The notes: generated from the sequence alone by a model not told the origin. Positions 32,065 through 51,100 are shown, numbered from the stretch's first letter. The stretch is 61,598 nt of DNA from Candidatus Iainarchaeum sp. (GCA_038895395.1 JAWANJ010000002.1:1-61598); one strand, 5' to 3'. Numbers and translations are program-made.

Positions 32065-32096
32065 ATAAAACGCCACGTTCTTACTAAATTTATGCA

Positions 32097-32218: not shown

Positions 32219-33163
32219 CTACTCCCAGCGCATTTTTATAAAAATTGTAGAAAGCAAAGCACAAGGTATGTTGATAAATATTTGACCGAAGACATAAAAC
32301 AAAAAAGCGGTGTTAAAAGGTAAAATGAAATGGGTAAAACCTCTTGTTATAGCTTTAAGTGGCACATGTTCAGAAGCTTTCTCTAGGAACTTTTCGTCTT
32401 CAATGGTTTCAGCAACATCTTTTAACGCATCTTTACGGTATTTTTCCGAATGAATCTCCTGTGCCAAGTTTCTAAAATAAAGTGAGAACTTTCGGCTTTC
32501 TTCACAATCAGCGCTTTCCAATGCTTTGAATTCCTTGCTATCAAGTATTTCCCTCATAAGCTCTCTTTTTTCTTCAACAACCGCGTCACTCACGCTGTTC
32601 AGTGCAACCTTAATAAATGACTTTACAAAAGTCTTTTCAAACATTTCAGCATATAGCTCTTTTTCAGGCATTACTACTAGAAAACCTGAAACAAACAACC
32701 CCAAAGAAATTAACAAAATTAGTTTGCTAACTGCGGCACTTGTTGATCTTATTGTTTTAAACCTTTTAAGCTCACTTAGTTTTGTCTTTAAAATTTCTCC
32801 ACTGACTGCAAGGCCAATTATATAAAAAGGTATCAAAAAAACTAATTTTCTGAGCGGAGCAAAGAGAAAAAAGCTAAGTAAGAGTGAAAAAGAAACTGAA
32901 AAGATGCACAGTGCCAAAGAAATGACAGAATTTTTTGATTGCAAAAGGTAAATAAGAAGACTATTGGCTAATACGAAAAAAACAATAAAAAGCCAAAACA
33001 AAGGTGATAGCAAAACAGCAGTGATTGCATAAAGATCTGCTAAAAGAAACGATTCAAAATTGAATCCACTTAAGTTTAAAAAAAACATCGAGATAATAAG
33101 ACAAGCTGAAGATAAGCTAACTACGATAATTTCACCTTTATAGGCTTTCACCTTTTCCTTCAT
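32219..33163 (-). CDS. hypothetical polytopic membrane protein
   Basis: 314 aa. About 6 N-terminal TM helices, a charged helical soluble segment, and 1-2 C-terminal TM helices. Overlaps the map 3' end by 26 nt. Confidence 0.55.
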   Translation of the reverse strand: MKEKVKAYKGEIIVVSLSSACLIISMFFLNLSGFNFESFLLADLYAITAVLLSPLFWLFIVFFVLANSLLIYLLQSKNSVISLALCIFSVSFSLLLSFFLFAPLRKLVFLIPFYIIGLAVSGEILKTKLSELKRFKTIRSTSAAVSKLILLISLGLFVSGFLVVMPEKELYAEMFEKTFVKSFIKVALNSVSDAVVEEKRELMREILDSKEFKALESADCEESRKFSLYFRNLAQEIHSEKYRKDALKDVAETIEDEKFLEKASEHVPLKAITRGFTHFILPFNTAFLFYVFGQIFINIPCALLSTIFIKMRWE

Positions 33164-34094: not shown

Positions 34095-36524
34095 TCATGA
34101 GAATAACCCTAAATTTGACTGTTTACCTCCGGCTATTAAGTCTTCTTCACTATACCCAAACTCGCTAATTATTTTTATAACCGACGGTATGACCTGATTT
34201 TTTATATAGTACTCCGCATCATAGTTTCCTTCGTTTACGTATTCTGCAAGCTGAGCTTTATCACTTATGCTTTTTCCACATTTTGTGATTATATAACCAA
34301 TAACTGAGCTTTCACCAATATCACGACCCTTTGCTATTGCTTTTTTTGCTGCGGCTACATGAGGTCCAACACTTTCATAAGCATTTACGTCCTTCTTTAT
34401 TTGGGAATATATTATAAGATCATTTTTCTTTATCAAACCGTCACGTAGTTCTTTAATTTTTTGTTTCACGATTGCAACAGCCTTTTCAGGTGAGCCATCT
34501 TTTAGTATTGCTTCAATCACCATGCGCTGAGTTTCCTTTGCAATGTTTGCCCAATCTCTGCGTACATATTCAAAACCAACAATTTTTAGATTATTGTTTT
34601 CATCTATCAGCGCATACTTTTTCTTTGCAGCTTGTGTTATTTCAGCCTTTTTCGTGACAAATATGCCTCTTTTGTAAAACCCCTCAAGCTCTAAATTCAT
34701 AACACCTGGCAATTTTGAGTTTATATATTCTACAAAGGCCATTACGTCTTCTTTGCTTTTTTCTTTAGGAATCTTTATGAATGTGCTATCTGTGTCGCCG
34801 TATATTATCTGAAAACCTGCTTTTTTTGCTTCTTCGGCAACCATCCTGACATATTCCCGGCTCCATGCAGTGATTGCAGACGCACATTCTTTGCTGTACC
34901 ATCTGAATCTTGCATAGCCAAGTGATCCGTAAAATGAATTTAATATTATTTTTAGTGAGTGCTGTCTAGCATCCGCAAGCAAATACTCCTTGCTATCTTT
35001 TTTAAGGAGCTTTAAAGATTTTTTTATTGCAACGCGTTCTTCAAATAATCTGCGTATTACTTTTGGCACAAACCCAACCTTTTTAGTACAAAACCAATAT
35101 TTGATTGGGCTAGAATTTTTTTCAGAGCATTCTTTGTGGTTGCAGTTCAGTGAATCAGGGCTTACATTGTGGGATATTATAATTGTTGGATGCAAGCTTG
35201 TGAAGTCTAAAACAGCTATGTTTTCGTGAAGGCCTGGTAATGGCTCATATACAAACCCCCCTTGATAAGTTTGCATTGTTCTTTCTTTTACTTCTTGATC
35301 GCTTGGTTTATTTGGCACAAGAATATCGCTATTAGATGCTTCGCCTATAAGAAGGGCCTCAACAAGCTGGGAGCTTGAACTTCTACTAACATCAAAAAGA
35401 GTGTAGTGCACAAGTTTTCCAAGTTCTATAAAAAGAGGAAGATAGTTGCTAGCAATTCTATATGCAACGTCAGAGTCTAGAAGATTATAGTCTGCTAGCC
35501 TTTCTAATCCAACCTTGCTTTTCCATATGGCATTTATCTCATTGGCGGGTATTTTTTCTTTAGGTTCATTAAACAATGTTTTACTTACGCTTTCCAAATC
35601 CAACTTAATTAGATTTACCACACCAAATCGCATCAACATGCGCAAAATTTGGTAAGCATCAATATGTGGTCTACCACGAACTTTTACAGCAGATTCTCTT
35701 GTCTTTTTCACGCCTATGGGTTCTGAGTTATCTACGCCAATGTCAAATTTTGTTTTTAGCTTTGCAGCTCGTACTTTCAGATATGGCAAGTCAAAATTAT
35801 CACCGTTGTAAGTCACAAGAATATCCAAATCTTTATTTTTTATCTTTTCAACCAACTTTTCTATAAGTTCCTTTTCACTGTCCACTTTGATTGCATAACT
35901 GATATTTATTTTTTCTGTACAAAAAACCAGTTTTTCTTCATTGTCAACATATGAAGCCATTATTATTGGATCTTTCTCAGGATTGGAGAATCTTTCTGGG
36001 GAATATGTTTCAATGTCAATGGCCCCAATTCTCAAATCGAGAACAGGGTCAACGCTTTTTTCTATTTTTTTATAATTTTTAAGTTCTTTTGTTATTTCAT
36101 CATATTCTATCTCGTAGAAAGAAAAAGACTCTAAGCCTGTATCAAAAAGAAATCTCTTTACAAAAGGAATATCATATTCGCGCTTATGGGTCACAAATTC
36201 TTGTTCTCTTATCGCTTCGCGAGCATCTTTCAGGTCTTTGGTTGACTTGAAAAAAACTTTTATCACAGTTGTTTTTTCATCTGATCCAAACAAGTATTTC
36301 TCAACTGGTACTGCCTCGACAATCTTTACTCCATTAAATTCTCTTTCAAGCAGTTTCTTTATTGCTTCTTGAGCTGAAATGTTAACTGTTATGTATAAAT
36401 AAGGCCTGTAATTTGGCATATATAGCATTATTTTCCCATTCTTTGTCTTGAAGAATAAAACTATCTTTGACTCTTCACCTTTAAGGTGGTCTACATCCAG
36501 CAAAAGAGCTTCTTCTTTCTTCAT
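34095..36524 (-). CDS. polB: family B DNA polymerase
   Basis: Exo motifs (IGAIDIETYS; YNGDNFDLPYL), polymerase motifs A (LDFTSLHPTII), B (KIILNSFYGSLGY) and C (YGDTDS). 809 aa. Confidence 0.95.
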   Translation of the reverse strand: MKKEEALLLDVDHLKGEESKIVLFFKTKNGKIMLYMPNYRPYLYITVNISAQEAIKKLLEREFNGVKIVEAVPVEKYLFGSDEKTTVIKVFFKSTKDLKDAREAIREQEFVTHKREYDIPFVKRFLFDTGLESFSFYEIEYDEITKELKNYKKIEKSVDPVLDLRIGAIDIETYSPERFSNPEKDPIIMASYVDNEEKLVFCTEKINISYAIKVDSEKELIEKLVEKIKNKDLDILVTYNGDNFDLPYLKVRAAKLKTKFDIGVDNSEPIGVKKTRESAVKVRGRPHIDAYQILRMLMRFGVVNLIKLDLESVSKTLFNEPKEKIPANEINAIWKSKVGLERLADYNLLDSDVAYRIASNYLPLFIELGKLVHYTLFDVSRSSSSQLVEALLIGEASNSDILVPNKPSDQEVKERTMQTYQGGFVYEPLPGLHENIAVLDFTSLHPTIIISHNVSPDSLNCNHKECSEKNSSPIKYWFCTKKVGFVPKVIRRLFEERVAIKKSLKLLKKDSKEYLLADARQHSLKIILNSFYGSLGYARFRWYSKECASAITAWSREYVRMVAEEAKKAGFQIIYGDTDSTFIKIPKEKSKEDVMAFVEYINSKLPGVMNLELEGFYKRGIFVTKKAEITQAAKKKYALIDENNNLKIVGFEYVRRDWANIAKETQRMVIEAILKDGSPEKAVAIVKQKIKELRDGLIKKNDLIIYSQIKKDVNAYESVGPHVAAAKKAIAKGRDIGESSVIGYIITKCGKSISDKAQLAEYVNEGNYDAEYYIKNQVIPSVIKIISEFGYSEEDLIAGGKQSNLGLFS

Positions 36525-36662
36525 ATGCCTTATTAAAAAAATTAGAAGGTATTATTATATTACTTTGTGATTTTGCTTATCCGTTTTCTTCTCCTTGTGT
36601 GGCTGAAAAGCCATTATGGTTCAAAGAAAGGCTTTTATTGGTGAAGTGTCATCTATATTTTC

Positions 36663-36947
36663 ATGGATATGCTAGAAATACTTTTCGGCCGAAGCGATTT
36701 TGCCACAAATCTTTGGTTCGTGCTCTGCATAGTTTATTCGATATGGATCTTTGGCTGGCTTAAAAAGCAGCTTGGCTCTGCTAAAATATCCTTAGTACTC
36801 ACAGCCTTGATAGTGTACATCATATTTGTGCAATATCCTGAGCTTGTGCTTATTCCCGTAATCCTTTTTTTGATTCAGACATTCTTTAGTGGCATGTTTG
36901 AAAAGATACCTGCTGGTAGCAAGAAACCAGAATATCTAAAAGATTAG
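36663..36947 (+). CDS. small membrane protein (about 3 TM), member of the giant-protein locus neighbourhood
   Basis: 94 aa, hydrophobic. First of three tightly packed plus-strand small membrane ORFs. Confidence 0.5.
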   Translation: MDMLEILFGRSDFATNLWFVLCIVYSIWIFGWLKKQLGSAKISLVLTALIVYIIFVQYPELVLIPVILFLIQTFFSGMFEKIPAGSKKPEYLKD

Positions 36948-36955
36948 GTGATTAA

Positions 36956-37273
36956 ATGGACATCCTGATGCTAGCGGTTACAGTAGTACTGATGATGTTG
37001 TTCATGCAGTATAATCAGTTTTGGCTTGTTCTTGGAATTCTTTTAGTAATGGTTCTCACATCTAGATCTTTCTCAACAACTTTTGTTCTTTTGCTAGCTT
37101 TCTTTCTTATCTATCTAACAAAAGACTTTCTTAAAGAACTTTGGCTTGCCATAACAATTTTTGTCATAGTGTTGGCATTGTCCCTAAGCTTTAGGAAAGA
37201 AGAAAGACAAGAATATCCACCTGATATGGCTGGATTTGGAGGTCCCCTTGATCAAGGTGGCTTTGGCATGTGA
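36956..37273 (+). CDS. small membrane protein (3-4 TM) with a Gly-rich C-terminal tail
   Basis: 105 aa. TM segments followed by PPDMAGFGGPLDQGGFGM. 8 nt after the previous ORF. Confidence 0.5.
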   Translation: MDILMLAVTVVLMMLFMQYNQFWLVLGILLVMVLTSRSFSTTFVLLLAFFLIYLTKDFLKELWLAITIFVIVLALSLSFRKEERQEYPPDMAGFGGPLDQGGFGM

Positions 37274-37665
37274 TAAAAATGCTCGAAATTTTTTTCTTAT
37301 TGTTTTTTATAGCACTTTTCCTTTTTTTGATACGAGTAACCTTTTTTGCAATATTTTTCCTTATGGCTGCATTTCTTTATGTGCTTTTTTTCTTTTTTGG
37401 TAGGCTTTTAGCTAATATGCGCAAAGGAGTTGCAAAGTTGGAAAGCTCAACAAAGAAGGAGATCAACGCAATTGAAAAAGCAGGTACATCATATCCAGAA
37501 GGTGCCCTTTCTGAAATGCTAAAAGAAGCGGGGCGAAAGACTGGAGAACATATTTTTTATGAAGATGCACGTTGGTCAGCAGGTGAATCTTCAAAGGAGT
37601 TAAGAGCAAGGTTAGGGAAAACAGCTAAAAATATTTCGTCAAGGTTTCTTGGGCTTTTTAAGTAA
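37270..37665 (+). CDS. membrane protein (2 TM) with a soluble charged C-terminal domain
   Basis: 131 aa. The GTG start overlaps the previous stop; an alternative ATG lies at 37279. Confidence 0.5.
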   Translation: MIKMLEIFFLLFFIALFLFLIRVTFFAIFFLMAAFLYVLFFFFGRLLANMRKGVAKLESSTKKEINAIEKAGTSYPEGALSEMLKEAGRKTGEHIFYEDARWSAGESSKELRARLGKTAKNISSRFLGLFK

Positions 37666-37683
37666 ACTTTATTTTTTTAGTTC

Positions 37684-38352
37684 TTAAGAAATTCTCAAAA
37701 TAAGCTTTTTCGTTGATTCTAGGACTTTTTCCAAAAGTTCCTTTGTGGCCGCAATGTCGCCTTTCATACTATCTATGTCTTCCTTTATCTTTTCTATATC
37801 TGTTTGTATTTTTGCTACCTGTTCACTCATTGTTAATGGGCACTCTGGTTTTTGAGTAGCTGCTTTTTGAATGGTCTTATGCAAATCTTCCAAAACATTT
37901 GCCTGCTGTACTACTGCAGCTTGTAATGTTGTATGGTGCAAATCATGTTCAAGCTTTGTTTCATCTATGCGGTTTATAATCTTGTCTACAGGTCCAATCT
38001 TTTTTTCTTCAATTTCTATATACTCAGGTTCAGCAGACTCCAGGAAAGAACCAATCTCACCACCCAAATCGATGCTTTCTTCATCCTCTTTTAAATTTTC
38101 TTTTTTAGCTATTGTTGGTTCCGGTCTCAGCTCGGCCTTTTTTATTGTCATTTCGTTATCAACAGCTGCTTGCTTAACCTCTTGCTTCAGTGGCTCATTT
38201 TTAGAAGCTTTCTCAAGGAGGGTCTTGCCACGCTCTCTACTAATGCCTACATCTTCAAGTGTGTCTAAAATTATATCATCTTCTAGTCCAGAATCTTTCA
38301 TACGCTTTATAGTTTCAACTAGCACTGTCTCGTCCACCAAAAACACCGCCAT
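37684..38352 (-). CDS. acidic coiled-coil protein
   Basis: 222 aa, very Glu/Lys-rich, with heptad-like C-terminal segments (IQTDIEKIKEDIDSMKGDIAATKELLEKVLE). No TM helix. Confidence 0.5.
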   Translation of the reverse strand: MAVFLVDETVLVETIKRMKDSGLEDDIILDTLEDVGISRERGKTLLEKASKNEPLKQEVKQAAVDNEMTIKKAELRPEPTIAKKENLKEDEESIDLGGEIGSFLESAEPEYIEIEEKKIGPVDKIINRIDETKLEHDLHHTTLQAAVVQQANVLEDLHKTIQKAATQKPECPLTMSEQVAKIQTDIEKIKEDIDSMKGDIAATKELLEKVLESTKKLILRIS

Positions 38353-38480
38353 TATTTGCTAAAATATTAAGCATCCATTATTTAAAAAGCTAACTTTCTT
38401 TGTTAAATAAAAAATAACTCAACCAAGCGGCAAAAGATAGGTTTAAATGTTATAAATTTTTTATTTATAATGGTGAACCG

Positions 38481-39998
38481 ATGGAATTAAATGTCACTGG
38501 TGGTCCTTGGCACGACCTACTAATAGGGAGCATAGAAGGCTTCGATTACGAAGTAAAAATAAGCAAAGACAATACAATTATTTCAATGATTTATGAAAAA
38601 TCTGGAAAGACGATAAAAGCCGTTCTTTTAGAGGTTTTTCGTGTTCTTCATGCAAAAGGTGATGCAACGTCTTTTTTAAGGCACATCCCAAAACGAACCA
38701 TAGCACTAAACATACATTCTCAAGATGGTTCAAGCCAATTTATACTTATAGACTCTGGCATAGAATATATACCATATGATAAAAACAACATAATACAAAA
38801 AGTTGAAGAGATGATAAAAAGAATAGAATCACTTACAAACATTTTATTAAAGGTTAGTTTGGCCTATGATATAAAACTAACTGAGCTTAAGGACTGCGAT
38901 GAAGAAATAAAATCAACCTTTTTTTCAATGCCATTAGTAAATTTGCTTGTTGCACCATTGACAAAAAAATGTCACAGTCCAGATATTTTGGAAGTATCGC
39001 ATGGTGAAATTCATCTAGGTATAACTAAAACTGGTGCCATGGTAAAGGAACCGTTTGACTTTTTCGAAAGGACTGTAGTTTTTGGTGGTCAGGAAAAGGA
39101 TCGTATTCATGTTTTGCACATACTTGCAGAAAGCGCGATCATATCTGGATTCCCGTTGATAATAATTGATTGGACTGATTCTTTCAGAGGTCTAAATGTA
39201 GCAAACCAAAATATTGCTGAACTAACAAAATATAAGGTTGAGCTTGATCCAGTTGGTTTTCCAACAAAGGTTTTTACTGCTGGGGTTGATATTAAAGTCC
39301 AAGTGGAATATATTGATCCAGAGGTTTTAATAGAACTATTTGGGATTGGAAAAAACATTGCGGGACAAGTAATAATTGAAGCTTTTAAAAAAGGCAACTT
39401 CAAGACGATAGAAGAATTAAAAAAGAAAATTTCTGAGATTGAAGAAACACCAAAGATAACCCCTTTTGTAAAAAGAGAGGCACAGAGAATAATAGAGGTT
39501 ATAGAATGTATTTATCCAGACATATTCTCAAACACAACACCGGTTGAAGAGATTACAAAAAAGTGGGCGAGGGGGCTAAGCAGAGCAAACATCCTGTTGT
39601 TCAAAGGCGATGATTTTAGAAAAAGCATTTTAATTCTTCAAACTACGCTTGTTGCACTCAAAAATCACTTAAAAAGTCAAGGCGCTAGCAATAAAATGAG
39701 AGCCATCTTGTTTTTCACAGCAGGCAATATGACAATACCAAGATTTTCTGCAACGTATACAAACAAAAGGCTTGCATCTGATGTTTCAGAGATGACAAAA
39801 TATGGTTGTGGTCTTATCTTGGAAGCTAATGACAAGATTGACATAAACCCAGATGTTTCCAAACTTTTCTTTACTTCAATAGGGATAATTGCTGGCAATG
39901 ATGCTGCTGTAGTTATAGAAAACAGAAAAAACTACCGTGTTTTTATAAGGCCAGGCCTTAGCGACTGTTGTAGCAAAATTAGCTCAAAAATCTTTTGA
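38481..39998 (+). CDS. HerA/FtsK-superfamily (DUF87-like) protein with apparently degenerate Walker A/B motifs
   Basis: 505 aa. TVVFGGQEKDRIHVLHILAESAIISGFPLIIIDWTDSF aligns by eye with the HerA block i.G.tGSGKS....l.e....g.pvlifDphGEY. The C-terminal TKYGCGLILEANDKIDINPDVSKLFFTSIGIIAGND resembles the RKyG.glilvsQrPsdid...ls block. GKS/T is replaced by EKD, and the expected Walker B acidic pair by FFTAGN. Confidence 0.45.
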   Translation: MELNVTGGPWHDLLIGSIEGFDYEVKISKDNTIISMIYEKSGKTIKAVLLEVFRVLHAKGDATSFLRHIPKRTIALNIHSQDGSSQFILIDSGIEYIPYDKNNIIQKVEEMIKRIESLTNILLKVSLAYDIKLTELKDCDEEIKSTFFSMPLVNLLVAPLTKKCHSPDILEVSHGEIHLGITKTGAMVKEPFDFFERTVVFGGQEKDRIHVLHILAESAIISGFPLIIIDWTDSFRGLNVANQNIAELTKYKVELDPVGFPTKVFTAGVDIKVQVEYIDPEVLIELFGIGKNIAGQVIIEAFKKGNFKTIEELKKKISEIEETPKITPFVKREAQRIIEVIECIYPDIFSNTTPVEEITKKWARGLSRANILLFKGDDFRKSILILQTTLVALKNHLKSQGASNKMRAILFFTAGNMTIPRFSATYTNKRLASDVSEMTKYGCGLILEANDKIDINPDVSKLFFTSIGIIAGNDAAVVIENRKNYRVFIRPGLSDCCSKISSKIF

Positions 39999-40439
39999 AG
40001 TAATGTCTCTTCTCTGTGATTGACCAAGTATTTCCTTTAGCTGATCTATAGTAACAAGTTCCAACGGATTTATAGCTGAAACTATCTGCTTAAGTTCGTT
40101 AAACTCACCATGGCTAACGAATTCTTTTCTAAGGTGTGTTACAATTTCACTTAATTCTTCAATTTTTTTGTTTGTGTCTTCAATACTTCTTTCAATTTCG
40201 ATGAGCCGCCTGCTAAAATCTTCAGATAATTTTTCATTAGGCCCGCTCTCGGCTAATTCACGAACCTTTTTGTTTAATACAATAATATTTCTGCCCAAAA
40301 TCTTTTCGTTTCTTGCTATGTGCCGCATCTTTTGAGAAATAAGTGAAACCGCACTGTTCAAAGCTTTCACATCTTCCATTAGTTGCATAAGTATAGTTGA
40401 TGTTTTTATAGGTCTTGTTTCGGCTCTTTCTTCTACCAT
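39984..40439 (-). CDS. coiled-coil protein, last gene of the giant-protein transcription unit
   Basis: 151 aa, heptad-rich (RRLIEIERSIEDTNKKIEELSEIVTHLRKEF). Its 3' end overlaps the convergent 505-aa gene by 15 nt. Confidence 0.5.
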   Translation of the reverse strand: MVEERAETRPIKTSTILMQLMEDVKALNSAVSLISQKMRHIARNEKILGRNIIVLNKKVRELAESGPNEKLSEDFSRRLIEIERSIEDTNKKIEELSEIVTHLRKEFVSHGEFNELKQIVSAINPLELVTIDQLKEILGQSQRRDITSKDF

Positions 40440-40483
40440 CTTATTATAAGAAGACTCTTTAATATTTAAATGTTTTCTATGGT

Positions 40484-40804
40484 TTATCTTCTAATTTGTG
40501 CAAGTCCCCACATGACAGCCGCAATGAAGTTATATGCTAGAAGAACAAATAAAAATATGTAGAGGCTAGCGGTTATGTATGCATGTTTTATCACAAGTAT
40601 GTAAACTAGCACACCGCTTATAATTAGCGTAAGTGCGTTTGATCCAAGTATGCTTCTAACTGTTGCAAATATAAGTATTGTAAGTATAAGCCTTATCAAA
40701 AGGTCCGCTGGCTTAAAGAGGCTCATCACTATAGGTGGTAACAATAGAAGCACAATTAGAGCTATAAATATTAAAACCATTAAATGAATGCCTTTTTGCT
40801 TCAT
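40484..40804 (-). CDS. small membrane protein (3 TM)
   Basis: 106 aa. Its start ATG overlaps the stop of the upstream ORF (ATGA at 40801-40804), which suggests translational coupling. Confidence 0.55.
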   Translation of the reverse strand: MKQKGIHLMVLIFIALIVLLLLPPIVMSLFKPADLLIRLILTILIFATVRSILGSNALTLIISGVLVYILVIKHAYITASLYIFLFVLLAYNFIAAVMWGLAQIRR

Positions 40805-41226
40805 CTTGGCAAGCCTCCGCGTCTTTTTGCCATAGCATGTAAATTTCTAGCTGCTTGAAGCTTAGCTGTTCTTTGAGCTAGGTCCAAAGATGAGCTTACG
40901 GGGGAATTTTCATTTTCAGCCATGGCTGCGCGTCTGTCGCTGGTCATACCACCGATAAAGAAAAAGTCAACAAGCATGCCACTAATACCTAGGGTCAGAA
41001 GCACATAAAATAAATATATTCCACCAAAAAAAACCCAATACTCAAATATTATAAACCAAGATATGCCTAATATGAGCAAAACAGCAAGTTGCCTGTTTTC
41101 AACGTGATTTAAAACAAAAGAAATTATAGAGATAAGTGCAAATATCTTGAGCACAAGCATAAAGTCTTGTATAATCTCAGTAAAAAGCATTAGTTGTGAT
41201 AGGAGCAAAATTTGTATAATTTCCAT
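40801..41226 (-). CDS. small membrane protein (3-4 TM) with a basic C-terminal tail
   Basis: 141 aa, 51 nt downstream of giant gene G1. Tail: RRAAMAENENSPVSSSLDLAQRTAKLQAARNLHAMAKRRGGLPR. Confidence 0.55.
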   Translation of the reverse strand: MEIIQILLLSQLMLFTEIIQDFMLVLKIFALISIISFVLNHVENRQLAVLLILGISWFIIFEYWVFFGGIYLFYVLLTLGISGMLVDFFFIGGMTSDRRAAMAENENSPVSSSLDLAQRTAKLQAARNLHAMAKRRGGLPR

Positions 41227-41277: not shown

Positions 41278-44200
41278 TCAATTACAACTCCTTCTAGTAA
41301 GGACATTGATCACTGAATTTTCTTTAAGAGCTTTTGGATTCCACCACAGTGACATGCTATTGTCATTAGCATCTACACACAATAGCCCTTCTTTCGCCTT
41401 TTCAATGAGCTCTTTTATAGATCCAACTTCTGGGTTTTCTGCACCTTTTAAGTTATGTGCGATATGCTCACTGAGCTGTTGATCTAAAAACTTAACATTT
41501 GGCGAAGCGGAAGTCAAAACATAGTTCTTACCTTGTGGAGAGAAAAACACTGAACTGAAAAAGTCGTTCCTTATTTCCATGCCTCTGTCAAATTCCAGGC
41601 CATAAGTTTCGGGTTCAAGCTTTTTATCTGGGTAATTCAAAATTTCACTTAAACTCTCGTTTTCTGATGACTTACAGCTTTCAATCCAATTCCAATAAGC
41701 TAAATTGTCTCCAACATCTGTTGTTTTTCCGTTTTCTAAAAGTTTGTAACTTGCTGTTAATTTTTCGTCTAATTTTTTTGAGGTTTGATCTGAGACCTTC
41801 ATAATTGCTATTGAAGCAGTGTTTGGTGAAAACCTCAATAGTAATTCGTTTTCCTTAATTGTGCCACTCAAGATGTTTCCACGCGTTTTTGGATCAACGT
41901 TTGTATATTTTATATCATCTATTATTTCTGTCCTAACCTTTACCAGTGGGGCGCCTTTGCTACCTTCAGTTCTAAGCTCTATTCCACCATAATTGCTAAT
42001 AGTAATTGGTTTGCTAGTATTCTCATAACCACTGCCATATCCAATTCTACCATTAGAGCTCTTTAGGCCCACTTCACCATCTATCGGCCAATAGTAGAAC
42101 AAAGATTCTGGCTCTGGTGGGGAGATTTTACTGTACTTGACCTTAACCAAAGCGTTTGGTTTGTTGTTTCTAAAGAAAGAAAAACTATTGTTAAAGTCAA
42201 TCTCAAGAAATACGTGATAGCGCCCAGGCCCAAGCAGCTTTCTTTCAGGGTTTCCAGTTTCAAATGCTAGGGCATTTTGACTGATAAAGTACTCCTTAAA
42301 GCCCCCGCTGTTTTTGAACCAAAATGGAACTTCAAAGAATGTTTGTGTTGTGTAGTACTCCGCAAAGTCACTCTTAAAATCTTCAGTGTAGCCGTCCATT
42401 ATCAATAACGCGTCAAACTCCAACAATTTTTTCAAAAATTGAATCTTTTCCTGCACAGTTGAACCAGGCCAACCACTGGGCCACTTAATTTCTTTTACAT
42501 TAACATATTCATTCCAATTACTTAAATTTCTGTCAATAAAGTAAAATAAAGCGGGAACACCCTCAATTTTCTTTGTGCTATAAGGTATCCAGCACTCGCC
42601 GTTATCTGCTGATATGGTGAACGCTACAGTAACTTCTTTGCTTGTGTTGCAGCCCCTACTACATTGAGTAATATATGCTAAACCAAAGTAAACATCATTT
42701 TTGCCTTTATCGAGATTGTCAAACAGGCACTCAACAGTGGTAACAGTATTCTTAACAACATTAATCTCTTTTTCACATTCTTTAGCATAGTCGCTACTCT
42801 TAAGTAAGAATTTAACTCTTAGCTTTTGATCTTCACTTGTTTTGTTTTCTATCGTGGCGCTCAGCGTAACTGCTGTTCTTGAAGCATTTAGTTTGTAATC
42901 TAAATTACTTATACCTACTTCATTGCTCCTAATGATGGCAGTTGATTTGCCATCCGTTGTGCTTTTAGAAATACCTTCACTCAAAACTGAACGTGGGTGT
43001 TTTGGACAGGCAAAGTAGTAATCATTCGCTTTGAAAAACTCTTCCAGCATGTAAAGCCTTTTTGTTAGAGCTATGCTATTTTGTACTGCATCGCAGTATA
43101 TGGCGCTTTCATTTTCAGCATCGCAAGAGTTCCAATCAATAGAATCCCATCTCCAATCAAGCTTTACTTTTGGGCTAACATCTTCTGCTAAATAACCTGT
43201 TTTTGTTCCCAAACTGCAACCTTTTAAACCACTGATGCTTTTTAGTTTGTCCCCAATATTTGAATTTGTTACAAATCTCAAATGGACTTTCTGTGAGTAT
43301 TCCCTTGTTTCAGTGTCTGGAACATTAAAAACACCAAAGTCAGCTTTGTCCCTTTCCATTTTGGGGTTTAAGTGTGTCGGGTCACCGTGTATGTGTTCAT
43401 TAACGACTATTTCTAATATTCCATACTCGCCCTTTTCTGCCGCGCGGTTTGTGTTGTTTTCAAAGTTTATTGTAACTATTTGTTCCTTCTTGCTATAATT
43501 GCTTTCTCCCTCTTCTTTGCTTAGTGCCACATCATAGGGTAGCTCTAAAACCTCAAGCCTTTTTATGTCGGAAGGTAGGTTTATTACGTAATCCATAAAA
43601 GCGTAAGTCGCCATTTGAACATCGCATTGTGCTCCAGAAATTGTAAAAAATGTAGTTATGGCAGCGCCTACAAAGCATAAAACACCCGCCCAAAAGCCAC
43701 CTTGTGTAGCGCAAGTAACGCCTGCGAGCAGTCCAGCACCCGCAGCTACTGCAACATTCACCCAAAACCCCGGTTTATCCAATGTTGCTCTCTGAAGGGC
43801 CTTATTCATCACACAATATTCAGGCAATTCTTCGCCTTCTCTGCATGCTGTGCATAGCTTTGCAGTTATGTTTACATCTTCAACCCACATCTTGTTGATC
43901 AAGTTTGCAGAATCCTTCCAATTGGTTTGTGCAGTTAGTATAAACTCATACCTATTCATGCTGAAATATTGTCCTTTTCCAGGTTCTATTATTGTGTCAA
44001 TAGTATCTATATACTGATATTCTGTTTCAGGTGCTTTCGCATACAATGTTATCCCATAAATTCCAGGTATTTGCTCTCTGTGTATTGTTATTGTTTTGGA
44101 GGTCTCATTCTTTGTAAATTTAAGTTCTTCGTATGGGACCAGAGTGATGCCACCTTCTTTTGTACCACCACGACATCTTGGGTCGTCCTTGCATAGCCAA

Positions 44201-47200
44201 ACCGAGATATTTATGTTGCATGAATTTGCATCTATAGTCATTGTGGTTTCATTTTGTTCTGGTTTTAAAACAATCTTTTTTGGATAGCGTATGCAATCCT
44301 TTAAATTCACAATCAGGATATTGGCATTTATTTTTGAATCAGCTCCAACAAAGACAAGCCCTTTGTCTGTTTTTATCTGACCATCGAACTCAATTGTAAA
44401 AATTGCGGTTTCGCCTTTGTATTCTTCTCCGGGTTTGAAAGTGATTATTGTAGAGTAAGTGCCAGAACGTAACTCGTTTTCAAATTTATCAAACAATTTT
44501 GTCCAAACACCACTTCTTAAAATCTTTGTAACTGTTGCTCCACCGGGGGAATTTATTGTGATTTCCACAGCCCCAGCTTTTTTTGAGTTTGATGCCCAAG
44601 TAAGCTTTGCTTGGAGATTTTCAAGATCTACGGGTTTGCCGTTGCTTACACACAAGTTAGATAACTTAACTTCTGTCTTTGCTAGGTTGTCTACAGTTGC
44701 TATGTTCCATTCTGGTACATTTGGGCCTGATAAAGATATACATGGGGCGTTTTCTGGCAAACCGCCTAAAGAGACATTTGCAGTAAAAGGAACAACAAAA
44801 GTATATGTCAAAGAGTGCTTTTGTACCAACACAATAATTTCTATGCTTCCAGATATTTGAGTGTTGCTCTGTAATAGTGACTCTGCATTTGGCGAAAGTA
44901 GCACTTTAAGTGCAAAGTCCAGCTGGTCTTTTGGTTTTACTTTTTGTCCAACAACCGTTGTTGCGTTTGCATTCATTGTTTTTTCATCCAATATATCATA
45001 AAAGTTTCCAACAAATCTTACACTCTTTAACAAAAGTTCTGAGCCGCTTTTATTCTCCAGACTCAAGACTATCTTTTCTTCTGTCTTTGAGGATGTGTTT
45101 AAGCTAACAGAAACACTTTCTGGTACAACGCGTGCAACATTAGAGTCGATAGTAATGACTTTTTTGAAAGGAGAATAACCCATTTTTTCAGCAGTTATTT
45201 CTACTCTGGTGTTTGGTAGTGATTCTACTAACTTAAAAACTGCAAGCCCATTGGCATCAGTAAGTTGCTGAACCACTTCATTAGTGCCATCATCATGTGT
45301 TCTGTGCATTGTTACGAGAACATCCTTAACCTTTTTCTTTTCCCCATCTCTTATATTAACCTTAAGCTCATATTCTGTGAATGGTGCCAATTTCTCTGGT
45401 TCAATGTTTACGTCGAGCTTTCCGACAGAGTAAACCTTTATTGGAACTACTTTGGAAAAAACTACAAATTTGTCAGCAATTATGTCTATTGCTATATTAG
45501 TTGTTGTTTCATCGTTTGTTTTGAACCTTATGTTTGTATTTAATGTCTTTCCATAATCAAATCCAACTAAGTTTTCTTTAAACTCATTGTCTTGTGGCAT
45601 ATACTCTTTTTGCTCGATATCAGCTGTTATCAACATCTTTTCAAAGACCAACGCTGAATCTGACTTTCCTTGTGTTTTGTTTTTTATTCTAATCTCTAAC
45701 GAACCATATTCTTTTTGTGAGTTGTTGAGCAAGTCTAAAATAAGATTGTAGTCTCCAAACAGCACTGTTGAGTAGGGTTCCTTTAAGAAGATATCCTCTT
45801 GTGCATCGTACATCCAAACGCCTGTAACACAAAAAAGCTCTTTGCAAACCCCTTCAGAGCCTTCATAAAATCTAATTTCATGCGTTTTAGCATATAGAGC
45901 ATCCTTTGTGGATGTTCTCTCTAGATCGCCAAGCTCTTCATCATAAGGTTCTCTTACATATGCAGTGTTGATAACCGCATAGCTTCTATAATGGAAAGTT
46001 ATGGGTGTTTTTGGTCTTGTAGAATCCTTGATTTTAATTTTTATTGGTACTGTGTATACAGAGGCTTTGGGGCTCAACCACTCTATGGATACCCATTTTC
46101 CGTCTGATCCAACAATTTCCTCTAGCGCTTCGGACTTTGGCGGATTATATGTTTTACCTATTCTAACCATGGTTCCTTTGATGTCAACGCCCTTTATAAA
46201 TGCTGGCTCCAAATTAACATCACTTTTTTCACCTATTCTAAAGTGGAATCCAACTTTTGAAGCACCCGGTGGGTAAAAAAGCATAAATTTGGCAACATAC
46301 TCTTTGCCTGCCTTGATGCTAGCAGAAGCTCCGCCATTTTGATCAAAGATACCTAAAAATTCAATCTTTGGTTTTGGAAGCTCACCTTCTTTGAGCAACA
46401 CTGCTTTTATTTCATATGTTTCGTTTGGCCATAATTGTATGGTTTCACTTTCATAGTTAAGAAAGCCATCTTTGCTTACCACAACATATATGCTTTGGGC
46501 TGCTTTAACCTCATATTCCTTTTCACCATCAACCATAACAATTTTGCCCTTTGTAAGAGAATTTCTATCTATGGAGGAAAAAACTTCAAAATAAGACTCC
46601 GGAATCTTAATACCGCGAGAATCAAATGCACTTACCTTAAGAATGCTCTTGCCAATCGTTATGGTAACCTCGAAATAATTGTTTTCGTCTGGTATTATTT
46701 TCTTAGCCTGCGCTGCAGAACCTCCAGATGCTGGATATTTTATAACAAAAGGATATACCTCTTCACTTAACCAGCCCAAAACAAATTCAGCTATGCCATT
46801 AGAGTCTGTAAGCTTATAGTTTTGACTCGAAGGAAGTTCAACAATAGAGTCAGTAGCTTTGTACTTAAACATTACCTTAGCATCTTTTACAGGTGCTCCG
46901 TCTTCATCAAGAACTTTTACAATAGTTCGCCCACTGTTAGCCTCAGTTATTCTTTCGAGCTCAACAGTTAAAGATTCCATTGAAGAGCTGATGTTTATGT
47001 CTAAAGTTTTTGGGAAATATCCTTCTTTTTTTGCAACAACAGTATATTTGCCAAAATCAAAAAAAGAAAATCTAACAACACCGCCTTCTTTTGTAATATC
47101 GCTTGCAATTGCTTTTTTATCAAATAGGACTTTGACTTCTACGTTCTCTACAGCACTTTGAGTTTCCATTTCAATTGTTCTAACTAATAAAACCGCACTT

Positions 47201-48165
47201 ATTTTTTTGCTAAGTTCCACATAAACCTCTGTTGTTTCTTTTGCTCTGACAACTGCAGTTATACAATTTCCTGAATAAGTTTGTTCCGGGTCTGTAGCGA
47301 AAACATTGTACAACCCAGGAAGCAGACCATCAAAATCAACTAACCCATAGCCTTGTGTATGAGCAACCTGTTTTGTGCCATCTTTTTCTATGTTTACGAC
47401 TATATTTTTTTTAAGTATCAACTCTTTTTTTTCATCAACAATTTTTACCCTTAGAGCGCCTTTAGGTATTTCAATCTCTTTGAAAATAACTAGAATTTCA
47501 GTCCCTTTCTGGATTGCTCTCTCAAATTCATGGTTTTCCAACTCCGCATTTTCAACCTTTAACTCTTTACAATCCAAAGGCAATGTAACTTCTATGTAAC
47601 CATCTTTGTCAATGTCAACTTCCTTCCAAGGGTTGATTGACTTATTCGAACAACTCAGCCAAACAGTTACAAATTTCCCTCTTGTTGAACCTTTGCTTGT
47701 TTCAAATCGTAATATTCTTTTTTCCAATGGTTTTTCTCTAAGTTTAAGAGTTAGTGTTTTATCTGTATCCTCTTTAATGGTAAAGTTCCATTCCTCATCT
47801 AAATATAAAGGATGCTTAACTACAATCCGTACCACTGCATTTTCGTCAACACTAAATGAAATTTTTCCTTTATCATCAGTCCTTCTAATTTTTGGTTCGT
47901 TTCCAATAACAAAATTTACATCAATTCCAGATATGGGCGCCCCTTTTTCATCTTTGAAATAAACTGTGAAAGTATAACGCTTTGGTGGTTTTGTTGGTTC
48001 TTGACTGAAAAAGAGCCAATATGCAAAAAAAGCTAAAATTATTAGTAGTATAAGCACAATTGGCAGGGCTTTTGGAATTCCTCGTCTTTCACAAAATGCA
48101 ATGTACCTTTCTTTTAGAGTTGGTGATGAATCTTCTTCTATAAAATCCATTATCCACACCAACAT
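41278..48165 (-). CDS. giant surface protein G1 (2295 aa)
   Basis: Uninterrupted 6.9-kb ORF. Architecture: N-terminal TM anchor (nt ~48005-48070), six beta-sandwich repeats, a conserved core, a two-helix hydrophobic hairpin (FWVNVAVAAGAGLLAGVTCA-TQG-GFWAGVLCFVGAAITTFFTI, nt 43639-43767), then a ~780-aa C-terminal region. Colinear with G2 and G3. The likely start is the second ATG (MDFIEE, nt 48150), which is preceded by GGTG. Confidence 0.85.
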   Translation of the reverse strand: MLVWIMDFIEEDSSPTLKERYIAFCERRGIPKALPIVLILLIILAFFAYWLFFSQEPTKPPKRYTFTVYFKDEKGAPISGIDVNFVIGNEPKIRRTDDKGKISFSVDENAVVRIVVKHPLYLDEEWNFTIKEDTDKTLTLKLREKPLEKRILRFETSKGSTRGKFVTVWLSCSNKSINPWKEVDIDKDGYIEVTLPLDCKELKVENAELENHEFERAIQKGTEILVIFKEIEIPKGALRVKIVDEKKELILKKNIVVNIEKDGTKQVAHTQGYGLVDFDGLLPGLYNVFATDPEQTYSGNCITAVVRAKETTEVYVELSKKISAVLLVRTIEMETQSAVENVEVKVLFDKKAIASDITKEGGVVRFSFFDFGKYTVVAKKEGYFPKTLDINISSSMESLTVELERITEANSGRTIVKVLDEDGAPVKDAKVMFKYKATDSIVELPSSQNYKLTDSNGIAEFVLGWLSEEVYPFVIKYPASGGSAAQAKKIIPDENNYFEVTITIGKSILKVSAFDSRGIKIPESYFEVFSSIDRNSLTKGKIVMVDGEKEYEVKAAQSIYVVVSKDGFLNYESETIQLWPNETYEIKAVLLKEGELPKPKIEFLGIFDQNGGASASIKAGKEYVAKFMLFYPPGASKVGFHFRIGEKSDVNLEPAFIKGVDIKGTMVRIGKTYNPPKSEALEEIVGSDGKWVSIEWLSPKASVYTVPIKIKIKDSTRPKTPITFHYRSYAVINTAYVREPYDEELGDLERTSTKDALYAKTHEIRFYEGSEGVCKELFCVTGVWMYDAQEDIFLKEPYSTVLFGDYNLILDLLNNSQKEYGSLEIRIKNKTQGKSDSALVFEKMLITADIEQKEYMPQDNEFKENLVGFDYGKTLNTNIRFKTNDETTTNIAIDIIADKFVVFSKVVPIKVYSVGKLDVNIEPEKLAPFTEYELKVNIRDGEKKKVKDVLVTMHRTHDDGTNEVVQQLTDANGLAVFKLVESLPNTRVEITAEKMGYSPFKKVITIDSNVARVVPESVSVSLNTSSKTEEKIVLSLENKSGSELLLKSVRFVGNFYDILDEKTMNANATTVVGQKVKPKDQLDFALKVLLSPNAESLLQSNTQISGSIEIIVLVQKHSLTYTFVVPFTANVSLGGLPENAPCISLSGPNVPEWNIATVDNLAKTEVKLSNLCVSNGKPVDLENLQAKLTWASNSKKAGAVEITINSPGGATVTKILRSGVWTKLFDKFENELRSGTYSTIITFKPGEEYKGETAIFTIEFDGQIKTDKGLVFVGADSKINANILIVNLKDCIRYPKKIVLKPEQNETTMTIDANSCNINISVWLCKDDPRCRGGTKEGGITLVPYEELKFTKNETSKTITIHREQIPGIYGITLYAKAPETEYQYIDTIDTIIEPGKGQYFSMNRYEFILTAQTNWKDSANLINKMWVEDVNITAKLCTACREGEELPEYCVMNKALQRATLDKPGFWVNVAVAAGAGLLAGVTCATQGGFWAGVLCFVGAAITTFFTISGAQCDVQMATYAFMDYVINLPSDIKRLEVLELPYDVALSKEEGESNYSKKEQIVTINFENNTNRAAEKGEYGILEIVVNEHIHGDPTHLNPKMERDKADFGVFNVPDTETREYSQKVHLRFVTNSNIGDKLKSISGLKGCSLGTKTGYLAEDVSPKVKLDWRWDSIDWNSCDAENESAIYCDAVQNSIALTKRLYMLEEFFKANDYYFACPKHPRSVLSEGISKSTTDGKSTAIIRSNEVGISNLDYKLNASRTAVTLSATIENKTSEDQKLRVKFLLKSSDYAKECEKEINVVKNTVTTVECLFDNLDKGKNDVYFGLAYITQCSRGCNTSKEVTVAFTISADNGECWIPYSTKKIEGVPALFYFIDRNLSNWNEYVNVKEIKWPSGWPGSTVQEKIQFLKKLLEFDALLIMDGYTEDFKSDFAEYYTTQTFFEVPFWFKNSGGFKEYFISQNALAFETGNPERKLLGPGRYHVFLEIDFNNSFSFFRNNKPNALVKVKYSKISPPEPESLFYYWPIDGEVGLKSSNGRIGYGSGYENTSKPITISNYGGIELRTEGSKGAPLVKVRTEIIDDIKYTNVDPKTRGNILSGTIKENELLLRFSPNTASIAIMKVSDQTSKKLDEKLTASYKLLENGKTTDVGDNLAYWNWIESCKSSENESLSEILNYPDKKLEPETYGLEFDRGMEIRNDFFSSVFFSPQGKNYVLTSASPNVKFLDQQLSEHIAHNLKGAENPEVGSIKELIEKAKEGLLCVDANDNSMSLWWNPKALKENSVINVLTRRSCN

Positions 48166-48179: not shown

Positions 48180-51100
48180 TTAGTCTTTTATACACTGTGA
48201 AGGTATGCTTTCTATAGTGTTCTTTAATGACGAATTGATGATCTCTTGCTGATTCCAGAAAAATATCGCTCTTGAGTCACTTCCAGCACCGGCGATGCAA
48301 ATTTTCTTTTCTTCCACTAACCTAAGTATCTTTTCTATTGAGGTTATTATTGTCTCTTCTAAGCCACCAGCCTCTACACGATTTCCAGTACCTTTTGGAG
48401 TTATAAAGCTTGCACTGTCCATAGCACTCACAATCTCGAGTAAAGCTGTACTTTCCTGTGGAGTATACAAGACAGTCTTAAGGAATGTATCCCCTTTTCT
48501 TATCACGTTGCACCATTCAATACCATATTGGTGTGTATCAAAACTTCCAGCACATTGGGTTCTACCAACACCTCCACGAATGTCTCTTTTGTAGTTAAAA
48601 GCTTCTGTCACATCAACATCACTGAAGTCTTTACAGCCTTTTGTAACACCAGCCCATGTGAAAAGATTACTAGACGCTTCCTGAGGTTTACCATTTATCG
48701 TAAGCTGGTAGAACACATACGCTTTTGTTCTTTCACCTCCGCTTACCTTGAGTATTATTGGTGTGACAACGCTTGGGCTATAAATCATACTTATACCACT
48801 GGCCGCTTTTTCAAGTTCTAAAACAACCCCTGGAGCATCATTGTGCAAAGTTTTAAAGTCTTTTACAACGCGGGCCTCTATCCACCCGCCAGGTATTGGC
48901 ACCGAGTTTGCAATTGTGGTTGTTCTTACTGGTTGTCTTATGTCCTCATTTATTTTTACAGTTTCTTCTGATTTTTGCCTGTAGTTTACTCCATACCCTT
49001 GTCGGCCGTTTTGGCTGTCGACACCTATAAGTCCGTCAAAGGGCATGTAATAGAACACAGAGTCTGGCTTTGGTGTGTCAAGGCGCTCAAATATCACTTC
49101 TATTTTCGCATCAGGCGTGGTGTTTTCAAACAAACACCAACAATTGTTGTTATAATCAATATTTATTTTGATATTATATTTTCCTGCTGGCAGATAGCCA
49201 GCTTCAGGCCTTAAGAATGATGACTTAAACTCAAACAGTTCTGGGTTTGAAAAGAATTTTCCAAGCCCAGTTTCTCCCTTATACCAAGATGGAGTGCTAA
49301 AGAAGTCTTTTGTTTCAGAGAACTCATGGAAGTCTCTTCTAAAGTCTAGCGTATAGCCATCTTGGATAAGATATGCATTAAAATTCACCAGTGATAATGC
49401 TTCTTTTAGGTTTGCGTTTGTTGGGTTGGCAGCAGCAAACTCTGCTAAGCGTTCAGTGGTATAAGGCTCACATTTTTCAAAGATTCCGGTTGGAGCACCA
49501 ACTGAGAATCTTGTGCTCAAAATATCATTGCCAAGGTTTTCATTTTTACAAGTTCCCGGACATGTGCTAAGCTGTGGACTAACTCTAATTGTGGCTTCAT
49601 ACAAACCTTCTGCAAGCTCATTAAATGTGCAACTAACCTCGCTATCGTCAATCACTTTTATTGCTTTTTCACCTTCTGGACAGCTCAAAGTTGATCCATC
49701 TTTTACAACATTTATAGATACGTTAACAGTTAGCTCTTTTTTGTTGTTGCTTGAGATTATGCCAATTACTTTGGCATTAGCTCCACTTTTTTCAATCTTT
49801 ATTTTTGTTACAGCAACGTCAAGCTTTAATGAGTCTAATTCCTGACTTCTTTCGTTCAGAATCCCTTCAGCTGAAGGACATTTCAGTTTTTGGCCTCTTA
49901 GCAATTCATCAATCCTTCTTATTTTTTTAAGCAACTCAATACTTAACTGAGTTGCATCGCAATAGTATCCTAAACCACCTTCATCACATTCATTTATAGC
50001 AATATCTTTCCAATTCCAAGCAAGCTTTATCTTAGGTAGAGCTTCCTTGCCAGTTGAGCCCACAAGAGCACCAACCTTACAACTAACCTCGGGCTTAATT
50101 GTAATCTCGGTGGGTTTTGACCTATGGGAGTTGAACTGTAGATGGAACTTTTGCAAATATCTTTCACCACCAATTACTGTTGGCTCCATCTTTTTCATAG
50201 CTTCAGCATCTTTCTTCATTCTAGTGTCATAGTTGGTGTCATACTCTAAACGATTTCCATCAACCCTAAGTACGCGATATATTGGTTTGTATATGTCTTC
50301 TTGTTGTATGCCATTGTTTTTGAATATAATTTCAATCTTCTCGAAACCTAGTGGTTTATCGGGTGTGGTTTCGACTTTACTATCGCCTTTTTGAACACTA
50401 ATCAGAGTTTCAATTTCCTCTTCTAAACCTTTTTGTATTACAAGTTGTAAGTCTGTTATGTTCAAATCCCTTACTGCAGCAACCACCTCAAGTACGCCAA
50501 CGTTTTGGCTTTGCTGCCAGTAGGTATATAAAGTGCCGGCTATGAAACCTATCAATGCCCCAGTCCAGGGGTCGTCTATGTTTATTATATTGCTAAAGAC
50601 ATTAAGACCGCCTTGTAAAAGACTTCCTATACTTTCTAATGAAAAGAACCCGACAGGTGCTGAGGTTACCATAACAGTTTGGTTGGGTTTCAATTTTGTG
50701 CTTACAACCGTGCTTGTTTTTCCAGCACTACTTAGATTGCAAAAGCTATTGTTGCAACTCTTAAACTTGTAGCAAGGCCCACTTTTTGAACACTCTACAT
50801 CATATTCACATGTAACCGCAAGTTCGCAATCACAAACCTTGCTCAAACCTGAGCCATAAGCTTTTTGACATTTGGCTAGTGTATCATAGCATCCGAAGCA
50901 CAAATTGCTGCTAGGTGCTATATCAGCACTAACACACTGGCCATTGTAGCACTTTGCACCAGTTGCGCCACAATCCATAAAAATGCCTCTTTTACCACAA
51001 CTGTCTTTCCAATAAAGCTTGTCATCCTCGCAATAGTATCCTTCAACAATACATTCTTCTCCAGACATAGCGCCAGAAGATCCACATCTGCTATTATTAC

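Follow-up and report, generated by a model that had tools for sequence, protein, structure and literature searches.

The crenarchaeal Ced and Ted machineries are type IV secretion systems (T4SS) that were domesticated for DNA import, and their CedB and TedB proteins are active ATPases thought to power this import (PMC9905601). Besides CedB, an active ATPase of the VirB4/HerA type, Ced needs a VirB6-like protein with six or seven transmembrane (TM) segments, CedA, and a VirB2-like pilin, CedA1 (PMC9905601). A set of eight archaeal genes that invites comparison with these systems lies at positions 36,663 to 41,226 of a 61,598-nucleotide (nt) stretch of DNA from Candidatus Iainarchaeum sp. (GCA_038895395.1, JAWANJ010000002.1:1-61598), which was analyzed over its full length and is called the window below. 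The eight genes encode five small membrane proteins (s94, s105, s131, M106 and M141), two coiled-coil proteins (cc222 and cc151) and a 505-amino-acid (aa) protein, p505, and they adjoin the genes for giant surface proteins (G1, G2 and G3). An earlier note, made from the sequence alone, had drawn attention to these genes and likened them to Ced. In the present analysis p505 is judged to be a new, catalytically degenerate relative of the HerA-family ring proteins, and no counterpart of the gene set around it has been described.

Like Ced and Ted, the window set combines several small membrane proteins, some of them mutually paralogous, with a protein of the HerA/VirB4 fold. It differs from them in that p505, unlike the active CedB and TedB, is degenerate at its catalytic motifs and lacks a TM segment, and in that none of the five small proteins of the block is a CedA/VirB6-like protein with six or seven TM segments (p314, a polytopic protein encoded nearby, lies outside this comparison). 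A further difference is that the window set is tied to giant surface proteins with immunoglobulin (Ig)-like repeats and to two coiled-coil proteins, all of which are absent from Ced/Ted.

The archaellum provides an analogy of another kind. Its ArlH/FlaH protein is KaiC-like with an incomplete Walker B motif, ArlX/FlaX is a TM-anchored coiled coil, and the true motor ATPase is ArlI; by analogy, this machine illustrates that a ring which does not hydrolyse ATP can be a scaffold. The likeness to the window set, one of analogy and not homology, consists in an impaired RecA-fold ring protein, a TM-anchored helical cytoplasmic protein (compare s131) and polytopic partners. The two differ in that no relationship of sequence or fold was found between them and that no counterpart of the ArlI motor is encoded in the block. 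As for the giants, the nanohaloarchaeal SPEARE proteins are likewise very large surface proteins of reduced-genome DPANN archaea, presumed to act in cell-cell contact. To our knowledge no conserved accessory set of this kind has been described beside SPEARE-type giants, and a literature search found descriptions of neither this gene set nor an inactivated HerA family in DPANN archaea.

The HerA-fold protein and its catalytic motifs

The p505 gene (38481..39998, plus strand) encodes a protein that the earlier note had labeled HerA-like. This label was right at the level of the predicted fold, as judged from an AlphaFold2 model of the monomer (predicted local distance difference test score, pLDDT, 79.9) and the matches of that model to HerA. 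The model contains an N-terminal beta-barrel (residues 10-98), a long helix (101-129) and a RecA-like core with a helical insert, while the linker at residues 157-188 has low model confidence yet is conserved in sequence. In a Foldseek comparison with the PDB, the best match was S. solfataricus HerA (4d2i, E 8.5e-13), followed by further HerAs (9x1m, 7wrw, Sir2- and DUF4297-associated), and VirB4 and TrwK appeared only after these (E 9e-9). The top match in the BFVD viral library was also HerA-related, namely a HerA_C-like phage protein (E 2e-12, root-mean-square deviation 4.5 Å, 392 columns). The label is invisible to curated sequence models, since the window protein matches nothing in Pfam or NCBIfam; among 11 family members, sub-threshold Pfam matches were limited to DUF87 in four (best E 0.035) and HerA_C in one (E 0.012). 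Sequence searches of the PDB with p505 alone or with its profile likewise returned nothing significant. The family is nonetheless large, with 259 clusters at 50% identity, almost all of them 470-520 aa long, and it falls into an Iainarchaeota group and a Micrarchaeota group, the latter 18-24% identical to the window protein.

The catalytic motifs were located by a profile alignment (hhalign) of p505 with E. coli YjgR, which is of modest significance (probability 54%, E 1.3e-4, 257 columns). In this alignment the Walker A motif of YjgR, GATGTGKT, falls on GGQEKDRI in p505, so that the lysine is replaced by R208 and the threonine by I209. The motif after the P-loop helix is LAES in both proteins, and the next strand reads VFMAD..G in YjgR and LIIIDW..F.G in p505. 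The Walker B motif FFFDEAH aligns with LFFTAGN, where the window protein has TA in place of DE; the same correspondence was obtained in a separate alignment of hidden Markov models (HMMs). An alternative candidate for Walker B, IIIDWTD (226-232), was discarded, as the YjgR alignment makes it the strand after the P-loop helix and places the Walker B equivalent at residues 409-416.

The loss extends across the family, in which residues were counted over 140 full-length members. The column of the P-loop lysine holds Arg in 114 of these and Lys in four, Ser or Thr never follows, and GK[ST] occurs at this site in 0/140; the family form of the site is GGxxx[DE]Rx. Four GxxxxGK[ST] strings do exist in the family, at other positions. 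The first Walker B position is P in 66 members, E in 29, T in 13 and D in 10, and a conserved DE is never found there, the pairs being TA, PE and similar. Because both Walker motifs are degenerate across the family, p505 is predicted to be a family-wide pseudo-ATPase, with at best a non-canonical site. E217 is invariant in the 140 members, and the conservation of DRxHxLHxxAE suggests that the pocket still has some job.

In a comparison with HerA and YjgR (DUF87/DUF853, in the FtsK-HerA P-loop superfamily), the beta-barrel, the RecA-like core, the helical insert, LAES and the hhhhD-x-x-G strand are shared, whereas GxxGxGK[ST] has become GGxxx[DE]Rx, DE has become TA, PE and the like, and no p505 member reaches a Pfam gathering score. 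The partners differ as well, being small membrane proteins and coiled-coil proteins rather than NurA/Mre11/Rad50, Sir2 or DUF4297.

Residues 279-315 of p505 (window 39315-39425), LIELFGIGKNIAGQVI, resemble a helix-hairpin-helix DNA-binding motif, and weak HHH_3 matches were obtained for 4 of 11 family members (best E 0.005). This candidate was not retained other than as a weak lead, as the GhG hairpin is poorly conserved, with the second glycine, G290, present in only 56/140.

Gene order in related loci

Related loci were collected from the neighborhoods of p505 homologs and of one cc151 homolog, from a scan of one genome per GTDB species and from a metagenome scan; 26 were left once duplicates had been removed, and orthologs were placed in them by tblastn and profile searches. 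The broad family alignments were too divergent for pattern-based scans for loci, and a narrower alignment gave only three metagenome loci. All eight open reading frames (ORFs) proposed in the earlier note are present exactly where it had placed them, and each of the eight products has syntenic orthologs, 25-80% identical, in as many as 26 further loci, a conservation that chance would not give. That note had also proposed a survey of synteny with the giants. The neighbors do not vary freely, because 16 loci, the window among them, carry the full set together with a G1 homolog, although the identity of p505 drops to as little as 32% (20-25% in alignment for L021) and that of PolB to 44%.

The commonest order begins with the giant gene or genes, directly followed on the same (plus) strand by the five small membrane genes M141, M106, s94, s105 and s131, and continues with the divergent pair cc222 (minus) and p505 (plus), usually cc151 (minus) in convergent orientation, and then PolB, an M24 peptidase gene and p314 (all plus). 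At least 14 loci show it, among them L021, which is only distantly related, and L027, a marine contig of 719 kb. The pairing of cc222 with p505 is strictly conserved, being divergent in 24 of the 26 related loci; in the exceptions p505 is solitary (L024) or cc222 has moved two genes away (L004). Small overlaps between genes are found within the membrane string. The overlap of the M141 stop and the M106 start as ATGA at 40801-40804, noticed earlier, was confirmed (the minus strand reads AAGATGAAGC), and the s105 and s131 ORFs also share 4 nt.

The window itself departs from this order by a single rearrangement. The six-gene block from s94 through cc151 (window 36663-40439) is inverted intact in the window and in its two closest relatives, L007 and L008, relative to L001, L003, L005, L009, L011-L017, L019-L021 and L027. 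As a result, cc151 comes after M106 and s94 faces PolB in these lineages. L004 also has the inverted orientation, but there the cc222 homolog is shifted to the plus strand between cc151 and M106. Programmed inversion was considered and rejected: no inverted repeats flank the breakpoints (36525-36662 and 40440-40483), and for that reason the inversion is treated as an evolutionary rearrangement. This bears on the long transcription unit G3-G2-G1-M141-M106-CC151 that had been proposed. What the genes show is co-directionality; a single unit running through CC151 is only putative, as cc151 has its own TATA-like box and elsewhere mostly does not lie downstream of M106. Because the six-gene block is inverted there, the string through CC151 is derived and limited to the sub-lineage of the window, and the general co-directional string is that of the giants and all five small membrane genes.

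Synteny is broken in other loci as well. In the Micrarchaeota locus L025, a giant of 2018 aa with a CarboxypepD_reg domain is kept near cc222, p505 and six small membrane genes; ScpA lies between p505 and the giant, and PolB is absent. L022 retains a giant, five TM genes, cc222 and p505 and has lost cc151 and PolB, while L023 and L030 retain cc222, p505, cc151 and PolB. In L028 and L030, a tail-anchored protein with two TM segments, cc222 and p505 stay together. The trio cc222-p505-cc151 is thus linked to membrane and giant genes on one side and to PolB on the other. Foreign genes have entered some of these loci. In L022, toxin-antitoxin genes (MqsA-like, DUF2283 and HicB-like; 6803-7505 and 11770-11997) separate the giant from the TM genes and also follow p505, and in L023 a HinfI-type restriction-modification pair lies inside the cluster (18532-20536).

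On the PolB side of the window, the family-B DNA polymerase gene (34095..36524, minus strand) encodes 809 aa and is a persistent neighbor of the block. The PolB genes in the Micrarchaeota-type loci L023 (12199-16278) and L030 (6328-9990), unlike that of the window, contain inteins, as seen from Intein_splicing and LAGLIDADG matches. Beyond the M24 peptidase gene, whose end it overlaps, lies p314 (32219-33163, minus strand), which encodes a 314-aa polytopic membrane protein without a Pfam match; it follows PolB-M24 in most Iainarchaeota loci at 24-58% identity.

The rest of the window (G+C about 37%) carries genes for RNA polymerase subunits, elongation factors EF-2 and EF-1alpha, CDC48, histidyl-tRNA synthetase (HisRS), a branched-chain polyamine synthase, the family-B DNA polymerase and seven tRNAs. 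The tRNA genes (Thr x2, Glu, Met, His, Leu, Arg) are all on the minus strand within 8 kb (24022-32168), among housekeeping genes, and the HisRS gene is directly upstream of tRNA-His. Named homologs of the studied genes come from Candidatus Diapherotrites/Iainarchaeum or an unclassified archaeon, with a minority from Micrarchaeota. In view of these archaeal core genes and of the Diapherotrites/Iainarchaeum labels of the homologs, the locus is core chromosomal DNA of an Iainarchaeota (Diapherotrites) DPANN archaeon and not a mobile element. Several further ORFs were rejected. One of 163 aa at 37871-38362 (plus strand) is an antisense shadow of cc222, and 48-aa ORFs beside the cc222/p505 genes of L001, L024 and L025 are mutually non-homologous and have no equivalent in the window, which marks them as spurious.

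Membrane, coiled-coil and giant surface proteins

The earlier note recognized none of the small proteins, and this is borne out by searches with all eight proteins against Pfam and NCBIfam (E<=1) and against PADLOC and PHROGs (E<=0.1), which returned only coiled-coil or hydrophobic noise and gave no family for any of them. None can be assigned to a housekeeping family in these collections; such an assignment would have spoken against the proposed membrane machinery. For p505 and the small proteins in particular, the PADLOC defense models gave no match and the PHROG matches were weak coiled-coil noise, so that neither a known anti-phage HerA system (Sir2-HerA, DUF4297-HerA) nor a viral packaging module was recognized. 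Hydropathy agreed with the earlier description of the small proteins as polytopic, predicting several TM segments in each of s94, s105, s131, M106 and M141 and none in cc222, cc151 or p505.

M141 (40801..41226, minus strand; 141 aa) is encoded immediately downstream of G1 and is followed by M106 (40484..40804, minus strand; 106 aa, about four TM segments). In an AlphaFold2 model of M141 (pLDDT 82.4), four helices belong to the membrane and a basic C-terminal one to the cytoplasm, and a Foldseek search with this model found zero PDB matches at E<=10. The M141 family comprises 83 clusters at 90% identity, in which all labeled members are from Diapherotrites, Micrarchaeota or an unclassified archaeon, with no Pfam domain in any of them. 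Independent ortholog profiles compared by hhalign identify M141 and M106 as paralogs (probability 94.7%, E 6e-8, 69 columns). The 94-aa protein s94 (36663..36947, plus strand; about three TM segments), with orthologs of 31-80% identity in syntenic position, is a possible third paralog, since its profile aligns with the M141 family at a probability of 63% (E 7e-5) and with M106 at 27%. A loop, [RKH]xLGSxxL, within a TM-loop-TM core is common to M141, M106 and s94. Iterated HMM searches lumped all three together, a grouping that was not accepted as it stands, as the independent ortholog profiles back only M141-M106 firmly.

The remaining two small proteins stand apart. The 105-aa protein s105 (36956..37273, plus strand) has about four short TM segments and a conserved Gly-rich C-tail; hhalign gave nothing significant between it and the M141, M106 and s94 families, and its profile also matches a 113-aa protein in the Micrarchaeota locus L025 (E 1e-17). 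The 131-aa protein s131 (37270..37665, plus strand) has a GTG start, an N-terminal TM hairpin and a basic, helical cytoplasmic tail, and is unrelated to the M141/M106/s94 group. Its gene always directly precedes cc222, in convergent orientation. In the Micrarchaeota loci L025, L028 and L030, this position before cc222 is filled by proteins with two TM segments and a charged tail whose sequence homology to s131 is undetectable.

The two coiled-coil proteins are soluble. The cc222 gene (37684..38352, minus strand) is transcribed divergently from p505, and the earlier characterization of its product as an acidic coiled-coil protein agrees with a net charge of -16. The protein starts with a small helical domain (about 45 aa), to which an acidic linker connects a coiled coil at the other end, which a simple heptad score places from about residue 165 to near the C-terminus. 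The N-terminal domain appears UBA-like by eye, and its motif is conserved into Micrarchaeota. In cc151 (39984..40439, minus strand), the same score covers residues ~12 to 139, and the conserved motifs are SQKMRxLxRNEKILGRNL and INPLE. The cc151 family has 542 clusters at 90% identity, the named ones being mostly from Diapherotrites/Iainarchaeum or an unclassified archaeon. The convergent p505 and cc151 genes overlap at their 3' ends by 15 nt (window 39984-39998) and by 4-33 nt in relatives (also L004, L005, L007 and L021), which implies overlapping transcripts and possibly antisense coupling. A TATA-like sequence, TTTAAATA, lies about 30 nt upstream of cc151, and TATA-like TTTAAAT boxes are found about 25-35 nt upstream of cc151, cc222, p505 and M141. 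These boxes are only suggestive of separate promoters for the four genes, because the genome is AT-rich.

The giant genes are all on the minus strand. G1 (41278..48165) encodes a protein of 2295 aa with Ig-like/CarboxypepD_reg repeats, in which a short, conserved N-tail on the cytoplasmic side precedes a single TM anchor, and G2 (48180..56327; 2715 aa) has the same N-terminal architecture. The N-tail, of about 30-45 aa before the single anchor, carries the motif L.E[RK]Y..L....GIP in G1 (48165-47926), G2 (56327-56088) and the giants of L021 (1757-1996) and L025 (11708-11469); it is therefore conserved from Iainarchaeota to Micrarchaeota, and it could be a handle for a cytoplasmic partner. A common C-terminal domain with a C[IV]D...W(W)NP signature and no Pfam assignment is found in G1 (41278-41640), G2 (48180-48540) and G3 (56436-56800). 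The third giant gene, G3, has an ORF at 56436-61532, at the end of the window, which opens inside a beta-lactamase/transpeptidase-like domain (Pfam profile positions 139-320 of 329); because it opens in mid-domain, G3 probably continues past the window end. The fusion of a serine-hydrolase domain to a giant surface protein is unusual. The giants were also considered as the S-layer protein and this was rejected, as the Micrarchaeum S-layer protein is about 101 kDa with a PF05123-type domain, unlike these giants.

Possible roles of the gene set

The reading preferred here, to which we would assign a probability of roughly 0.42, is that the eight genes encode a membrane-associated complex that is peculiar to Iainarchaeota and Micrarchaeota and has a genetic link to the giants, with p505 as a scaffold or gate and not a motor. 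The small proteins would form a membrane-embedded base, and the cytoplasmic tail of s131, together with cc222, cc151 and a predicted p505 ring, would form a cytoplasmic platform under it, which may also contact the conserved cytoplasmic N-tails of the type-II-anchored giants. Since canonical ATP hydrolysis would be impossible for p505, its part would be that of a structural ring, adaptor or gate rather than of a translocation motor. Given such a non-motor role, the complex would not pump DNA but would organize, anchor or regulate a giant surface apparatus, plausibly one for attachment or host contact. This reading is favored by the recurrence of the full set with a G1 homolog, by the parts of the set that stay together in L022, L025, L028 and L030, by the HerA fold and lost catalytic motifs of p505, and by the N-tail that the giants share. 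Two further observations agree with it: labels in the p505, M141 and cc151 families name the same lineages, and the lineage of the window inverted six genes as one with their internal order kept. Several others weigh against it. In L023 the s94-like genes are 10 kb from the trio, which is with PolB, and in L024 p505 is solitary; R208 and E217 might at best make up a non-canonical nucleotide site; and the housekeeping genes PolB-M24-p314 are conserved in the Iainarchaeota block too, so that adjacency alone is weak and no proof of a single function.

The main alternative, suggested by the persistent adjacency of PolB and rated somewhat less probable, is that two unrelated modules merely stay adjacent: a surface or envelope operon of the giants and the five TM proteins, and a DNA-associated module of cc222, p505 and cc151 with PolB, for example a non-catalytic ring that tethers DNA in replication, repair or segregation. 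It would account for the divergent placement of cc151 and PolB, seen in L023 and L030 as well as in the most frequent order of Iainarchaeota, for ScpA adjoining p505 in L025, and for the separation of the small TM genes from the trio in L023, and it agrees with the description of HerA relatives in the PDB as DNA translocases and with the weak helix-hairpin-helix matches in 4/11 p505 members. However, breaks in synteny leave p505 beside the TM and giant genes no less often than beside PolB (L022, L025 and the inversion common to the window, L007 and L008), and the gene before cc222 invariably encodes a TM-anchored protein. Nor does p505 have the motor motifs that define the DNA-translocating HerA, and the hairpin of its helix-hairpin-helix-like segment is not conserved (G290, see above). 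The co-directional TM genes, tightly spaced or overlapping behind the giants, could instead point to a dedicated device for insertion, secretion or quality control of the giants, in which the TM proteins would be an insertase or chaperone and a p505 ring would serve the nascent giants as holdase in the cytoplasm. Also in its favor, the giants have an N-terminal anchor, a conserved cytoplasmic tail and no classical cleaved signal peptide; type-II signal-anchor proteins, though, are normally handled by Sec. Such a device seems improbable, as gene order is the sole positive evidence for it, no similarity to Sec, YidC/Oxa1 or Tat components was found (Pfam and NCBIfam, and the M141 model against the PDB), the block encodes no energy source, and p505 is kept without an adjacent giant in L023 and L024.

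DNA transfer of the Ced/Ted/T4SS kind, with the small TM proteins as pore and pilus and p505 as a VirB4/CedB-type motor, is where the analogy in the earlier note would lead, and as a mechanism that analogy is not supported. The likeness in composition is superficial, although the paralogy of the small TM proteins does recall the relationship between CedA and CedA1 (PMC9905601). In 140/140 p505 members neither Walker motif is present at the position that corresponds to it structurally, which argues strongly against a transfer motor, and the block encodes no other ATPase. In addition, p505 lacks a TM segment, and the proteins of the set have at most about four TM segments each, with none resembling the 6-7-TM VirB6/CedA. 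Pfam searches at E<=1 gave zero matches to the VirB2, VirB3, VirB4 and TrbC families, so that no small protein was matched as a VirB2-like pilin; a pilin-like fold was sought with the M141 model alone, which had zero matches in a PDB copy not checked for Ced/Ted pilin entries, and short TM hairpins are hard for Foldseek. Transfer by a motor of this type is accordingly rated as very unlikely. Slightly better odds, if still long ones, are given to a hitherto unrecognized envelope-spanning docking structure or conduit of Micrarchaeota and Iainarchaeota on the symbiont side, with the giants outside, a base of small paralogs, and a non-catalytic HerA-like ring with coiled-coil struts inside. It would exchange material with the host, possibly including DNA delivered to PolB, through a passive gate powered by a host-side machine or by membrane potential. 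Cryo-tomography of the micrarchaeon ARM-1 revealed an unidentified barrel-shaped complex beneath the S-layer where host nanotubes enter (PMC11329633). This barrel would be a candidate for such a conduit, and a link between that density and the gene cluster is pure speculation.

DPANN archaea are abundant, mostly uncultured and thought to be host-dependent, and the molecules of their contact structures are essentially unknown. The locus provides a testable set of about eleven genes, conserved in two DPANN lineages and with zero annotated members. With p505 at its center, it would also be, as far as we know, an uncommon example of the fold of ring translocases being put to a use other than that of a motor. 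Should the trio of cc222, p505 and cc151 work with PolB, it would represent a new replication- or chromosome-associated factor of these archaea. If instead the set is physically linked to the giants, its genes would be prime candidates for the attachment or exchange apparatus that has been seen only as densities in cryo-tomograms, and the set also supplies specific targets for pull-down and tagging experiments and for the fitting of subtomograms in those few Micrarchaeota that are in culture.

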